DNA from: Escherichia coli O157:H7
GTDB taxonomy: Bacteria > Pseudomonadota > Gammaproteobacteria > Enterobacterales > Enterobacteriaceae
Assembly: GCF_013167455.1 (NCBI RefSeq)
Contig: NZ_CP038328.1
Length of the DNA stretch: 64,000 nt
Strand: one strand, 5' to 3'
Position 1 is the first letter of the stretch. The number at the start of each line of letters is the position of its first letter. The position numbers were made by a program. Shown in pieces: positions 33,001-45,000 of this stretch.

Positions 33001-36000
33001 TTTTATCATCCTGGTTAAGCAAATTTGGTGAATTGTTAACGTTAACTTTTATAAAAATAAAGTCCCTTACTTTCATAAATGCGATGAATATCACAAATGT
33101 TAACGTTAACTATGACATTTTGTGATCGAATATGCATGTTTTAGTAAATCCATGACGATTTTGCGAAAAAGAGGTTTATCACTATGCGTAAGTCAGATGA
33201 ATTTAAGGGAAAAAAATGTCAGCCAAAGTATGGGTTTTAGGGGATGCGGTCGTAGATCTCTTGCCAGAATCAGACGGGCGGCTACTGCCTTGTCCTGGCG
33301 GCGCGCCAGCTAACGTTGCGGTGGGAATCGCCAGATTAGGCGGAACAAGTGGGTTTATAGGTCGGGTGGGGGATGATCCTTTTGGTGCATTAATGCAAAG
33401 AACGCTGCTAACTGAGGGAGTCGATATCACGTATCTGAAGCAAGATGAATGGCACCGGACATCCACGGTGCTTGTCGATCTGAACGATCAAGGGGAACGT
33501 TCATTTACGTTTATGGTCCGCCCCAGTGCCGATCTTTTTTTAGAGACGACAGACTTGCCCTGCTGGCGACATGGCGAATGGTTACATCTCTGTTCAATTG
33601 CGTTGTCTGCCGAGCCTTCGCGTACCAGCGCATTTACTGCGATGACGGAGATCCGGCATGCCGGAGGTTTTGTCAGCTTCGATCCCAATATTCGTGAAGA
33701 TCTATGGCAAGACGAGCATTTGCTCCGCTTGTGTTTGCGGCAGGCGCTACAACTGGCGGATGTCGTCAAGCTCTCGGAAGAAGAATGGCGACTTATCAGT
33801 GGAAAAACACAGAACGATCGGGATATATGCGCCCTGGCAAAAGAGTATGAGATCGCCATGCTGTTGGTGACTAAAGGTGCAGAAGGGGTGGTGGTCTGTT
33901 ATCGAGGACAAGTTCACCATTTTGCTGGAATGTCTGTGGATTGTGTCGATAGCACGGGGGCGGGAGATGCGTTCGTTGCCGGGTTACTCACAGGTCTGTC
34001 CTCTACGGGATTATCTACAGATGAGAGAGAAATGCGACGAATTATCGATCTCGCTCAACGTTGCGGAGCGCTTGCAGTAACGGCGAAAGGGGCAATGACA
34101 GCGCTGCCATGTCGACAAGAACTGGAATAGTGAGAAGTAAACGGCGAAGTCGCTCTTATCTCTAAATAGGACGTGAATTTTTTAACGACAGGCAGGTAAT
34201 TATGGCACTGAATATTCCATTCAGAAATGCGTACTATCGTTTTGCATCCAGTTACTCATTTCTCTTTTTTATTTCCTGGTCGCTGTGGTGGTCGTTATAC
34301 GCTATTTGGCTGAAAGGACATCTAGGGTTGACAGGGACGGAATTAGGTACACTTTATTCGGTCAACCAGTTTACCAGCATTCTATTTATGATGTTCTACG
34401 GCATCGTTCAGGATAAACTCGGTCTGAAGAAACCGCTCATCTGGTGTATGAGTTTCATCCTGGTCTTGACCGGACCGTTTATGATTTACGTTTATGAACC
34501 GTTACTGCAAAGCAATTTTTCTGTAGGTCTAATTCTGGGGGCGCTCTTTTTTGGCCTGGGGTATCTGGCGGGATGCGGTTTGCTTGACAGCTTCACCGAA
34601 AAAATGGCGCGAAATTTTCATTTCGAATATGGAACAGCGCGCGCCTGGGGATCTTTTGGCTATGCTATTGGCGCGTTCTTTGCCGGCATATTTTTTAGTA
34701 TCAGTCCCCATATCAACTTCTGGTTGGTCTCGCTATTTGGCGCTGTATTTATGATGATCAACATGTGTTTTAAAGATAAGGATCACCAGTGCGTAGCGGC
34801 GGATGCGGGAGGGGTAAAAAAAGAGGATTTTATCGCAGTTTTCAAGGATCGAAACTTCTGGGTTTTCGTCATATTTATTGTTGGGACGTGGTCTTTCTAT
34901 AACATTTTTGATCAACAACTTTTTCCTGTCTTTTATGCAGGTTTATTCGAATCACACGATGTAGGAACGCGCCTGTATGGTTATCTCAACTCATTCCAGG
35001 TGGTACTCGAAGCGCTGTGCATGGCGATTATTCCGTTCTTTGTGAATCGGGTAGGGCCAAAAAATGCATTACTTATCGGTGTTGTGATTATGGCGTTGCG
35101 TATCCTTTCCTGCGCGCTGTTCGTTAACCCCTGGATTATTTCATTAGTGAAGCTGTTACATGCCATTGAGGTTCCACTTTGTGTCATATCCGTCTTCAAA
35201 TACAGCGTGGCAAACTTTGATAAGCGCCTGTCGTCGACGATCTTTCTGATTGGTTTTCAAATTGCCAGTTCGCTTGGGATTGTGCTGCTTTCAACGCCGA
35301 CTGGGATACTCTTTGACCACGCAGGCTACCAGACAGTTTTCTTCGCAATTTCGGGTATTGTCTGCCTGATGTTGCTATTTGGCATTTTCTTCCTGAGTAA
35401 AAAACGCGAGCAAATAGTTATGGAAACGCCTGTACCTTCAGCAATATAGACGTAAACTTTTTCCGGTTGTTGTCGATATCTCCATATCCTTCAACCGGAA
35501 AATAATAATACTAAAATGCTTAGCCCTGCTAATAATCGCCTAATCCAAACACCTCATTCATGTTCTGGTACAGTCGCTCAAATGTACTCCGGATACACGG
35601 TTCGCTGATTTCCAGGACATTGTCGTCATTCTGCGACCTGTCCCGTGTATCACGGGCCTGCGAATTCATCAAGGAATGCATTGCGGAGTGAAGTATCGAG
35701 TCACGCCGTATTTCGCTATCAGGATTCTGTGTGATGGTTACATCGCCCGGCCCTGGGCTGTTTAGTCATCAGCGCTTTCTGACAGTGCTGAGATTTCAAC
35801 CTGTTGCAGTAAAAATGAGTAGATATAGGGCAAGTGTGCTGCCAAACCCATCGTTTACGGGATGAAGGTAGATTTGGTTTGAAGGGTATCTGGTGTCCCT
35901 GCAGGAATCGAAAAATTAGCTAACAATTTGAATTGTAGTTTATTTCTCTTTCGATTTTGGTGAGTGCCCCAATAGGTGCCCCCAAGCGTTGTGATCAGAA

Positions 36001-42000: not shown

Positions 42001-45000
42001 CAAACATCTCAAGCCGCAAAGCAACAGGAAGCGGATGCTGCATTCCAAAAAGAATATGCGGCAGCCATCCAGTCCGGCGATCGACAGCAGGTTCGAGATC
42101 TGATGACCAAATATCCTGGTCAATTAGAGAAGATTCAGTCTGGTATGAAGTGGGCAGACGAAGACCAGCGCAATTCTATCGGCACCTTAGCGGCTGGCGC
42201 ACGCCTTGCGGCCTCGTCTCCAGAAGCAATGCAATCATGGCTGCAAAACAACGCCAAGGAACTGGCGCGCGTCGGTGTTGACCCTAACAACGTTGCTCAG
42301 ATGTATCAGCAGAATCCTTCAGGGTTTGGTGAGTTTGTTTATCACCTTGGGATGGCTGCTCTCGGTCCGATTGACTACTTCAATGTTCAGGACAAGATGG
42401 CTGGTCGTGAGATTGACCGAGGCAGGCTGGCAGAGACAATCCGCAGCAATCAGGCCGGAGATTTTGAGTTTAAGTCAAAGCCGTCATATTTAGTTCTATC
42501 ATTTGCTGAAATATCATCTGTAGTCTTTATCCTAATGTCTGTCTATATGGTGGCAAAAAGTCAAAATAGCAATGGATTACAGTATGATGCGCTTTTTATA
42601 CCATCAATGGCCTTTTCAATATTAGTGTTTTCGTTTAATGGTGGTATTATTTCAAAAATAATATCAAATAAAGTTATGATACTTTTAGGTGATGCTTCTT
42701 TTTCATTTTACTTGGTCCATACTATAGTAATCAGTACATTGAGCAAGTTCTTTAATGTTTCTGGTCTTGGTGCTATAAGTGTAATTAAATTTATAGTAAT
42801 GGCTCTGTTTGCTTCATTATTTATATCAATAATGATGTATTTGTTTTTTGAAAAGCCAATAAACAATAAGCTAAGAAAATGGTGGAGTGGATTTAAGAAT
42901 GATGTTTCAACCACTCGAGTTGAAAAAATAGAAGGCAATCAATTATAGCAATTAAAGTATGATAAGCATTTATGATTGGTTTTAATGAAATGCATATGTA
43001 GTTAACATATAATAATTGCATTTTGTTATTGTTGATGGTTTCTTGGTGTAAGAAATCCTGAGAAGTGAAAAGCTTTGCTATATGTGCAAGGCTTTTCTTT
43101 TTTATAAGAATCGTTGTAATAACTACTCCACCTTCCCATCAAGCCAGTCCGCCCACCACTGCATCATTTCTCTGCGCTTATCGAGATACTGAGCATGGTT
43201 GTAAATCCCACGCACAGATCCGCCGTTGGCATGTGCTAGTTGCACTTCAATAGCGTCAGCAGGCCATTCGTGCTCGTTCATAATCGTGCTGAATTCATGC
43301 CTGAATCCGTGACCGCTTTCCAGACCTTCATAGCCGATTTGTTTGATCACAAGCAGTACAGCGTTCTCACAGATTGACTTCTTCTTATCGTTGCGCCCGG
43401 CAAAAACAAACTCTGATACTGGTTTAGTGATGGAGCTTAGCGTAGTGAGAAGTTCAACAACCTGGTCCGACATCGGAACCACATGAATCTTGCGTCCCTT
43501 CATCACACTGGCCTCGATGGTGATAATCCTGTTTTCAAAATCGACGTTCTTCCATTGCATGGAACGAAGCTCTTTCGTTCTTAGTGCTGTGTAGCGTAAA
43601 ACTTTGGTCGCAATGAGAGATACGATACTTCCTGAAAATGTTGCAAGTGCTTTGTTGAATGCCGGGATCTGGTCGGCAGGTAAAAACGGGAAGTTCTTCT
43701 TGCGGTATCCCTTCATGGCTTCAGCAAGGTCAGGTGCCGGGTTATATTTAGCCCTTCCGGTGACAATAGCGTAACGGAAAACCTCGCCGCATCTTCTGCG
43801 TGCTTTGTTGGCTCGCTCCATTGCCCCGCGATCTTCAAATCTGCGGATTACTTCCAGCAGTTGCATCGGCTCAATATCCTGAATTTCAAGGCCGCCGATG
43901 ATAGGTAAAATGTCGTCATCAAACATTTTTGCAAGTTCAGTCGCATAGGCGGCTGACCAGACTTGCCTCTTATGCTCGTACCATTCCTTGTAAATCGCAC
44001 TAAAGGAATTGTTGTTAGACGAAGCCTTTTTCGCCTTTACCGGATCGATGCCAACCGAGATGTCTTTCCTCGCAGTCCATGCTTTATCCCTTGCCTCTTG
44101 CAAAGTCATAAGCGGATATTTTCCGACGGTCAGGATTTTCTCCTTACCGTCAATCTTGTAGCGAAGCTGCCATACCTTTTTCCCTGATACAGGGACATAA
44201 AGGTACAGGCCATTACCATCGAGTAGGCGGTATGGTTTTTCTTTCGGCTTTGCTGCTTCAATCTGCTTAACGGTGAGCATGGGTAAAAATCCGGTGGGTA
44301 AAATTATTTTATCCACTTTTTACCCGTCATGGCGTGCGGCTGTCAACGATCTGACGCGAACCATGACGAACTGTGAATCTACGGAAGGCTTGATATTCAG
44401 GGGATTTTGCGGACTGGTACGGATGGAGGCGAACTGATAAATGGTGTCCCCTGCAGGAATCGAACCTGCAATTAGCCCTTAGGAGGGGCTCGTTATATCC
44501 ATTTAACTAAGAGGACATTGTTGCGTATTGATTTTGGTTGTTCACCATATGACTGATAATACCGTCTTTATGGTTTTAAAATCAAGGTGTAAGTTTGTTT
44601 TTGTTCATGGTTGATTATCTTCTTTTGCGTTGAAAAGTGTTTTGTTCACTTGCTAATGCGTACATATTGAGTACAGAATACATTATAAACTTGTGTACAG
44701 GATATAAAGCATTGGCACTGAGCGACACCAAACTACGAGGCCTCTACGGAAAACCCTACTCTGGCCCTGCTGAAATCACCGATGGTGACGGGTTAAGTGT
44801 GCGGATTACTCCAGCAGGAACTATCACGTTTCAGTACCGTTATCGCTGGAATGGTAAGCCAGTACGTCTTACTGTCGGGCGCTATCCGTCTACTTCACTG
44901 AAGGACGCGCGTGTTATCGTCGGTGAGATGCGCGCATTGTACATGAAGGGAGTTAACCCTAAAAATTATTTTGCGCCCAGTGACGGCGAACTGACATTAA

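Follow-up and report, generated by a model that had tools for sequence, protein, structure and literature searches.

We analyzed a window of 64,000 nucleotides from Escherichia coli O157:H7 (RefSeq assembly GCF_013167455.1, contig NZ_CP038328.1), in which an island occupies positions 35891-44516 at the tRNA gene argW. The island is very probably a collapsed tandem array of two elements, unrelated to each other, for which the 3' end of argW is the integration site. The part distal to argW would be the remnant of a small argW element, and the part next to the tRNA gene that of a P22-like prophage. The copies of the attachment site (att) and the junctions that delimit these parts are as follows (all coordinates are those of the window unless a locus is named).

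35891-35912, + strand: distal att copy, 22 nt long, which repeats the argW 3' end except for one deleted nucleotide; judged from its context, attR of the small argW element.
40139-40140, no strand assigned: junction J1, at which the remnants of the small element and of the P22-like prophage meet, located by comparison with locus L005 (strain JNE131328) and phage Louie.
42461/42462: junction J2, at which codon 217 of the phage gene gp20 is joined in frame to an acyltransferase remnant.
44442-44516, - strand: argW, tRNA-Arg(CCT), the sole tRNA found using ARAGORN; positions 44442-44464, at its 3' end, form the proximal att copy.

When positions 35000-40139, including the distal att copy and the chromosomal flank, were compared with other genomes, they were 98% identical to positions 6079-11220 of L005, and the 470-aa cargo of O157 is found in strain JNE131328 too. 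In other E. coli chromosomes, the end segments of the distal part (35891 to ~37217 and ~38902 to 40139) recurred at 92-98% identity around differing middles, and the arms in the window were 92-96% identical to those of loci L002-L004. The distal part contains the following features.

36047-36673, - strand: serine recombinase of the resolvase/invertase type (208 aa) in the conserved left arm (PHROG 125, DNA invertase, E 1.9e-40).
36976-37152, + strand: small conserved open reading frame (ORF; 58 aa) of the left arm, beside the cargo slot; annotated in L001, L005, L006 and L017 (PHROG 35119).
37339-38751, + strand: cargo gene (470 aa) in a segment with a GC content of 0.34, located in a variable slot with boundaries at ~37217 and ~38902.
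38902-39420, no strand assigned: non-coding region conserved between the cargo gene and rep; the motif GTTGACG recurs in it, both directly repeated and inverted.
39421-40139, - strand: rolling-circle Rep gene, 5'-truncated, with the HUH motif HVHAII; the region upstream is also lost.

The serine recombinase was identical or nearly identical to the protein encoded in L002-L006, and its Klebsiella homologue matched the Pfam family Resolvase. Relative to the annotated form of 285 aa, rep lacks its first 47 codons; relative to the 350-aa form, P0122, it lacks ~110. The full-length homologue P0122 matched the Pfam family REP_ORF2-G2P (PF23343, E 1.5e-6), and the motifs HVHAII and IDYMAKP are visible in the remnant in the window; the protein is thus predicted to be an HUH rolling-circle-type initiator. 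The adjoining non-coding region, which showed a mean column identity of 90% across six elements with different cargo, is a plausible candidate for a replication origin or a Rep-binding region.

The same unit, ~8.1 kb long, stands alone at argW in strains E100341, WP8-S17-ESBL-12, VCSW7, JNE131328 (NZ_AP027212.1), M9682-C1, AR_0006 and FDAARGOS_1279 (intact-element loci L002-L006, L017 and L018). Strain 4 (NZ_CP045209.1) likewise has an intact element. Read from argW, it consists of a tyrosine integrase (428 aa), an ORF of 240-250 aa, an AlpA/excisionase-type helix-turn-helix regulator, three small ORFs, the HUH Rep, the conserved iteron region, the variable gene or genes, the 58-aa ORF, the serine recombinase (208 aa) and att, and at each end of the unit stands a perfect repeat, 23-24 nt long, of the argW 3' end. 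The remnant in the window shares with this unit the collinear arms, the cargo slot, the 23-nt argW repeat and the same flank; the element's own tyrosine integrase, AlpA-like regulator and full-length Rep were deleted. The initial annotation had regarded the distal 3.5 kb as a separate, plasmid-like insertion. The separate origin was borne out; the segment measures 4.25 kb (35891-40139) and is the remnant of an element integrated in tandem rather than a plasmid-like insertion. A phage origin of this part was rejected, as positions 35913-40100 had no match among 50,697 phage records. A plasmid origin was rejected as well, the only matches (~71%) being to resolvase genes of Enterobacter plasmids.

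Homology to phage DNA within the island is confined to two segments, 40140-42461 and 43123-44457. The first, which holds the needle, gp14 and gp7 genes and the 5' half of gp20, was 95% identical to vB_EcoP-720R6, 90.7% to Louie and 83% to Sf6 at the nucleotide level. The second, which holds int and the attP core, was 95-97% identical to Sf6, HK620, CUS-3 and others. Apart from gp20, considered below, the genes of these segments are as follows.

40140-40668, + strand: tail-needle gene (P22 gp26/Sf6 gp9-like), 5'-truncated with ~107 codons lost (PHROG 1030, positions 83-256 of 268; a pseudogene in the PGAP annotation; alignment with Louie).
40668-41135, + strand: gp14-like (DUF2824) gene, intact (annotation, PHROG and phage comparison).
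41122-41802, + strand: gene of a gp7-like DNA-ejection/transfer protein, intact (annotation, PHROG and phage comparison).
43123-44316, - strand: IntS, a tyrosine integrase of the Sf6/HK620 type, intact (annotated start at 44280).

The order needle-gp14-gp7-gp20 is common to the island and the P22-like podophages (Lederbergvirus: Sf6, HK620, CUS-3, Louie and vB_EcoP-720R6), with 83-95% nucleotide identity, and in these phages the attP core lies in argW, as here. The gene of IntS, the integrase that the initial annotation had placed directly beside the tRNA gene, is indeed only 125 nt from it, and the protein is 98% identical to Sf6 Int. The intact order in Louie and Sf6 is needle, gp14, gp7, gp20, gp16, tailspike, (moron) and int, the moron locus of these phages lying between the tailspike gene and int. 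Between gp20 and int the island lacks the C-terminal half of gp20, gp16, the tailspike gene and the front of the moron gene. Further, head, lysis, immunity, replication, xis, gp16 and tailspike genes were absent between 35891 and 44516 according to the annotation and to ORF and PHROG scans. Thus, synteny, homology and an Sf6/HK620-type integrase at the argW attP core link this part to the P22-like phages; unlike them, it retains only ~3.6 kb of phage-derived DNA (40140-42461, and int with the attP arm, 43123-44441), and a complete inducible genome and a matching attR are missing.

The two att copies point to different owners. The distal copy, TGGTGTCCCTGCAGGAATCGAA (22 nt, 35891-35912), pairs with TGGTGTCCCCTGCAGGAATCGAA (23 nt, 44442-44464) through an exact block of 16 nt, with one C missing; by our own estimate, ~0.01 exact repeats of 16 nt are expected by chance in 10.5 kb. 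At an empty argW site (dsdC-argW-yfdC of strain NT1N34), the argW allele of which is identical to positions 44442-44517, only the tRNA copy is present, as expected of an att duplication. That argW is duplicated at its 3' end, as the initial annotation proposed, is therefore confirmed. The position of the distal copy and its flanks recur in JNE131328 (L005) and L003, in which the copy is a perfect 23 nt, and related elements in other genomes are likewise bounded by a perfect copy of the argW repeat. Homology to IntS-type phages stops 16 nt into the tRNA gene, at 44457, and the distal att copy of the K-12 prophage CPS-53 has only TGGTGTCCCCTGCAG (~15 nt) in common with argW. The left copy in the window matches through ...GGAATCGAA, which corresponds to the 23-nt duplication of the small element, and it lies between sequence of the small element and the chromosomal flank that also adjoins that element. 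Because the repeat is 22-23 nt long, as in the small element, and its flanks are collinear with that element, as against the ~16-nt core of IntS phages, the left copy is most likely the attR of the small element, and the right copy would be argW with the IntS arm.

The repeat had been taken to bracket a single Sf6/CPS-53-like serotype-converting prophage with its own att repeats, internal deletions and a plasmid-like insert in the distal 3.5 kb. Such a prophage would account for the att-like repeats at both ends, for IntS beside argW and for the P22-like genes, and the distal Rep-like and resolvase genes superficially resemble those of a plasmid. However, the distal 4.25 kb, with its att copy and flank, is 98% collinear with an independent ~8.1-kb element that stands alone at argW elsewhere, the length of the repeat fits the small element and not the 16-nt IntS core, and no plasmid DNA matched above ~71%. 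J1 also truncates both rep and the needle gene, and shows neither a target duplication nor an insertion signature. The likeness to CPS-53 (KpLE1) did not survive comparison. This prophage occupies the same attachment site and its intS is 96% identical at the nucleotide level; the K-12 locus aligns only at 43125-44520 (intS and the att core), and CPS-53 is otherwise unrelated, with gtrABS-type genes co-directional with intS and other phage remnants. We consider the single prophage highly unlikely and retain the collapsed array of two elements.

J1 cuts rep on the - strand and the needle gene on the + strand, and no microhomology was evident there when L005 and Louie were compared. An ORF of 189 aa (40099-40668, + strand) runs from antisense rep sequence across J1 into the frame of the needle knob and has acquired a new GTG start.

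J2 lies within a single ORF, next to which a possible terminator was found.

41812-42948, + strand: fusion ORF (378 aa), of which 41812-42461 corresponds to gp20-like residues 1-217 and 42462-42948 to the C-terminal ~160 residues of an AT3-family acyltransferase.
43067-43097, + strand: strong terminator-like hairpin followed by a T run, 3' of the acyltransferase remnant, inside the AT-rich segment 42462-43122.

Residues 12-217 of this ORF matched the Pfam family Inj_translocase (E 1e-64), residues 1-217 matched PHROG ejection-protein families, and the same residues were 95% identical to residues 1-217 of the 453-aa Louie gp20. Homology to P22-like phage DNA ends at 42461, where the GC content falls from 0.52 (41812-42461) to 0.29 (42462-42948); four transmembrane (TM)-like segments occur in residues 224-348 and none before. 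The change of composition near 42470 and the multi-TM tail reported previously were thus located at J2. The C-terminal part resembles acyltransferase-3 proteins, as had been suggested. Residues 230-343 matched positions 215-325 of the 326-position model Acyl_transf_3 (PF01757, E 8.6e-6), residues 219-364 matched positions 224-368 of 372 in PHROG 3333 (O-acetyltransferase, E 1.7e-23), and residues 222-362 were 38% identical to residues 220-360 of the 368-aa O-acetyltransferase (gp49) of phage TL-2011b (E 2e-33). The ORF is thus a true in-frame fusion of an ejection protein and an AT3 acyltransferase. The family match concerns the last third of the Acyl_transf_3 domain alone, and the full-length multi-TM domain with the N-terminal catalytic part is absent; therefore, catalytic activity is not expected.

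The loss of the gp20 C-terminus, gp16, the tailspike gene and the N-terminus of the acyltransferase supports the idea of a deletion scar in a P22/Sf6-type prophage. The resemblance to Sf6 itself holds for the integrase and the virion module; the acyltransferase remnant has no detectable similarity to Sf6 Oac and is oppositely oriented. Orthology to Sf6 Oac was rejected, since BLASTP gave an E value of 0.44 and the orientations differ: Sf6 oac shares its strand with int, the remnant with the late operon. In TL-2011b, the gp49 gene follows a large tail gene co-directionally, and the remnant here is also co-directional with the late operon. For the AT-rich segment 42462-43122, comparison with phage DNA gave no relative, and none of the complete E. 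coli genomes had an intact version.

We also considered that the fusion might be a selected, functional membrane-anchored protein, for example a superinfection-exclusion factor that holds an ejection-protein domain at the membrane. In favor of this, its two parts share a frame and encode 378 aa with four TM-like segments; the ORF is at least 99.9% identical in 308 genomes and is followed by the terminator-like hairpin. However, clonal descent of O157:H7 explains this conservation, as the same 308 genomes hold the whole island; the frame would be kept by chance in one case out of three; the promoter of the late operon and its activator were deleted; and the AT3 part lacks model positions 1-214, including the N-terminal catalytic region. 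A scan for promoter-like sequences was at background (18 found, 17.9 expected) and is therefore uninformative on the expression of the ORF. A functional fusion is accordingly hard to credit, and the protein is probably a functionless by-product of the deletion.

The island as a whole is ordinary and largely known already, being a fixed, cryptic remnant in the E. coli pathotype of which the most genomes have been sequenced. Megablast of positions 35000-45500 returned full-length matches of 100% identity to many E. coli O157:H7 chromosomes, and the complete island was present in 308 of the 5426 complete E. coli genomes. The argW island of E. coli O157:H7 is prophage Sp16 of strain Sakai (PMC3519850). 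Judged by its locus and its sequence, which are the same, the present island is this cryptic, immobile prophage. Sp16 has been described as an unassignable prophage with a chimeric or highly disrupted backbone (PMC2669165), and its excision, replication and packaging were all negative (PMC2669165; echoed in PMC5359411). The PCR for excision circles that the initial annotation had proposed has thus already been published, with a negative result (PMC2669165). The published descriptions of Sp16 (PMC2669165, PMC3519850, PMC5359411) contain neither its division into a P22-like remnant and the distal half of a separate argW element nor the mapping of its two junctions.

From the homologies, junctions and truncations observed here, together with the immobility known from published work, we infer the following order of events. 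An ancestor would have carried the small element at argW, as JNE131328 does today. A P22/Sf6-like podophage using IntS would then have lysogenised the regenerated tRNA gene, giving a tandem array. An illegitimate deletion at J1 would have removed ~30 kb of the phage genome, the internal att and the region of the small element from its integrase to the 5' part of rep. A deletion at J2 would have removed the C-terminus of gp20, gp16, the tailspike gene and the N-terminal ~215 residues of an AT3 acyltransferase encoded by a co-directional moron, and the two parts would have been joined in frame by chance. The product is immobile: IntS is intact, but xis is absent, the left att copy carries a 1-nt deletion and belongs to another element, the integrase of the small element is lost and rep is truncated.

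The end product would be identical if the phage had arrived first and the small element had later entered the distal partial att of the prophage, or had been acquired through homologous recombination of the csc/dsd flank, before the deletions. The argW locus is a recombination-prone hotspot that holds many different islands; the dsdC-yfdC interval, with tRNA-Arg-CCT, is hotspot #11 in a survey of E. coli defence islands (PMC10121019 supplement). Further, the left flank, with the csc genes and a DUF4942 fragment, is common to strains that carry the small element. However, the distal att of a P22-like prophage keeps ~15-16 nt of the tRNA gene, as in the CPS-53 copy, whereas the small element duplicates 23-24 nt, so that such a site would be a poorer target, and the simplest path uses an intact tRNA gene. 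We therefore regard the reversed order as improbable and favor the arrival of the small element before the phage.

Several observations weigh against the collapsed array and its proposed history. No genome with an uncollapsed array, that is, a complete P22-like prophage together with a complete small element, was retrieved, and the intermediate is thus hypothetical. The end product by itself does not reveal which element came first. The assignment of the left att copy depends on 6-7 extra matching bases and on the collinearity of the flanks. An intact parent of the acyltransferase was not found: distant-sensitivity blastn of 42440-43130 against the 5426 complete E. coli genomes returned only the 308 fused copies, tblastn against phages only TL-2011b (38% identity), and a word-index search of 5.8 billion proteins only a 101-aa partial sequence. 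Therefore, the view of J2 as a deletion within one ancestral phage, rather than as a junction with a third DNA, stays an assumption.

A collapsed array accounts both for the "chimeric" label of Sp16 and for its failure to excise, and it corrects the idea that the att repeats of Sp16 define one prophage. Islands bounded by att repeats at busy tRNA sites can be collapsed tandem arrays; therefore, boundaries drawn from repeats only can assign cargo to the wrong element.

Forward-looking value lies only in the family of small argW elements and its variable slot, including the widely mobile 470-aa gene. The integrase of the small element, described as P4-type, is 31% identical to IntS. In Klebsiella pneumoniae, the corresponding chromosomal site (mlaA-yfdC) holds an element of the same architecture, whose Rep is 54% identical and whose cargo is again different. 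Seven types of cargo occurred in the slot: the 470-aa protein; a 394-aa HNH endonuclease; a ParA-like ATPase; a GTPase-domain protein with a 152-aa ORF; proteins of 821 and 330 aa; an HNH_2 protein with two small ORFs; and a DpnII/MboI-like endonuclease with a 232-aa ORF. A count of genomes with the whole of L005 as query was swamped by matches to the tRNA and showed only 6 genomes with at least 80% of that exact variant.

Like small mobile islands with an integrase at defence hotspots of E. coli (Hochhauser et al. 2023), and like satellites such as P4 that carry hot spots, the small element is integrated at a tRNA gene, encodes an integrase and an AlpA-type regulator, and has one varying slot. 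In contrast to P4-type satellites, it encodes an HUH rolling-circle Rep and a serine recombinase and not a primase-helicase. No hallmark genes of P4 or of phage-inducible chromosomal islands were recognised in the intact element by PHROGs or NCBIfam, which recognised only the integrase and the AlpA/excisionase-type regulator. Satellite-like behaviour is possible, and the remaining small ORFs of the element match no PHROG or NCBIfam family. Integrase-only islands of unclear mobility have been described in the survey of E. coli defence islands (PMC10121019).

In the 470-aa cargo protein, nothing was found by Pfam, NCBIfam or PADLOC v2, and a profile search of the PDB gave only a spurious match to PCNA (E 0.01). 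Database search returned 233 homologues. Among the 120 of these that were listed, most were ~450-475 aa long and 54-85% identical, and none had a Pfam domain; the listed homologues came from Dickeya, Vibrio, Salmonella, Shewanella, Pseudomonas, Aeromonas, Undibacterium and Chromobacterium (gamma- and beta-proteobacteria). In Stutzerimonas nitrititolerans (L010, 6598-16243), the homologue adjoins a 320-aa integron-type integrase and is the first of a series of small ORFs on one strand, among them a barstar-like gene; the setting looks like a chromosomal integron cassette array. A homologue in the AlphaFold database (AFDB) is "ORF467" of S. stutzeri, and in Dickeya the homologue is an isolated insertion. 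The AlphaFold model of the 470-aa protein was of moderate quality (pLDDT 63, pTM 0.71). A Foldseek search of AFDB gave homologues that are uncharacterised and, more distantly, one protein with the label "ZorC EH domain", which has no sequence-level support. Conserved acidic residues of the 470-aa protein include D7, E37 and D124.

The 470-aa gene may plausibly serve in defence or as a toxin because the argW interval is a hotspot for defence systems, which were present in 376 of the 973 genomes with an occupied hotspot #11 (39%; PMC10121019 supplement). It is retained by every O157:H7 genome with Sp16, which makes it a candidate for phage defence or toxicity, and it is probably the only part of the island that matters to the host. 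Of the cargo proteins that were searched against PADLOC, none gave a convincing match; only the ParA-like cargo gave a weak match of 37 residues in the P-loop (E 4.6e-6). We tentatively raise a broader proposal, although we doubt that it holds in full: the small elements would form an undescribed ~8-kb argW integrative family in E. coli and Klebsiella whose slot is a site of defence-gene exchange, the 470-aa protein would be a new effector, encoded by a single gene, that acts against phages or as a toxin and has a PIN-like nuclease fold at its N-terminus, and the losses in which cargo is retained would represent domestication.

Other rearranged copies of the small element were also found. In the csc flank of CP027593.1 (L022, 9001-14581), lambdoid early genes abut the Rep gene, a DpnII/MboI-like cargo and the resolvase gene, and database chimeras (proteins P0131 and P0132) join Rad52 or Int to the C-terminus of Rep. 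Independent, analogous collapses exist, in which breakpoints in rep recur and the cargo and recombinase genes are always retained. In E. coli O6:H16 M9682-C1, a second, degenerate recombinase arm (L006, 200-1828) lies beyond the complete small element; in it are a recombinase pseudogene, an ORF of 263 aa and a degenerate att with 1 mismatch. The small element itself may therefore also occur in tandem arrays.

PGAP annotation of the identical locus of strain TW14359 lists, on the left side, cscA, cscK, cscB, a DUF4942 fragment, a recombinase family protein and hypothetical proteins of 58, 470 and 215 aa. On the right side, it lists the tail needle knob pseudogene, DUF2824, a DNA transfer protein, a "phage DNA ejection protein", IntS and tRNA-Arg, followed beyond the tRNA gene by a further integrase and lambdoid genes. 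The DUF4942 fragment is a short ORF (35529-35681, - strand) between cscB and the distal att copy; it occurs at the same place in other strains with the small element and looks as if it were left over from a further island that once occupied the hotspot. In a subset of O157:H7 genomes (e.g., NZ_CP040314.1 and NZ_CP062713.1), an IS3-family insertion of the IS1203/IS629 type within 35913-40100 splits the match in two.

A second, lambdoid prophage lies on the other side of argW (44493-64000), with attL at 44493-44517 and an integrase gene at 44637-45881 (+ strand). Positions 43123-46313 were 99.7% identical to the start of the record of the Stx2 phage VT2phi_272, in which attL is annotated as 25 bp that overlap the tRNA gene at its 5' end; therefore, argW is used at both ends, by different elements. 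Public "phage" records of the VT2phi_272 type thus count the intS and argW of Sp16 as phage DNA.

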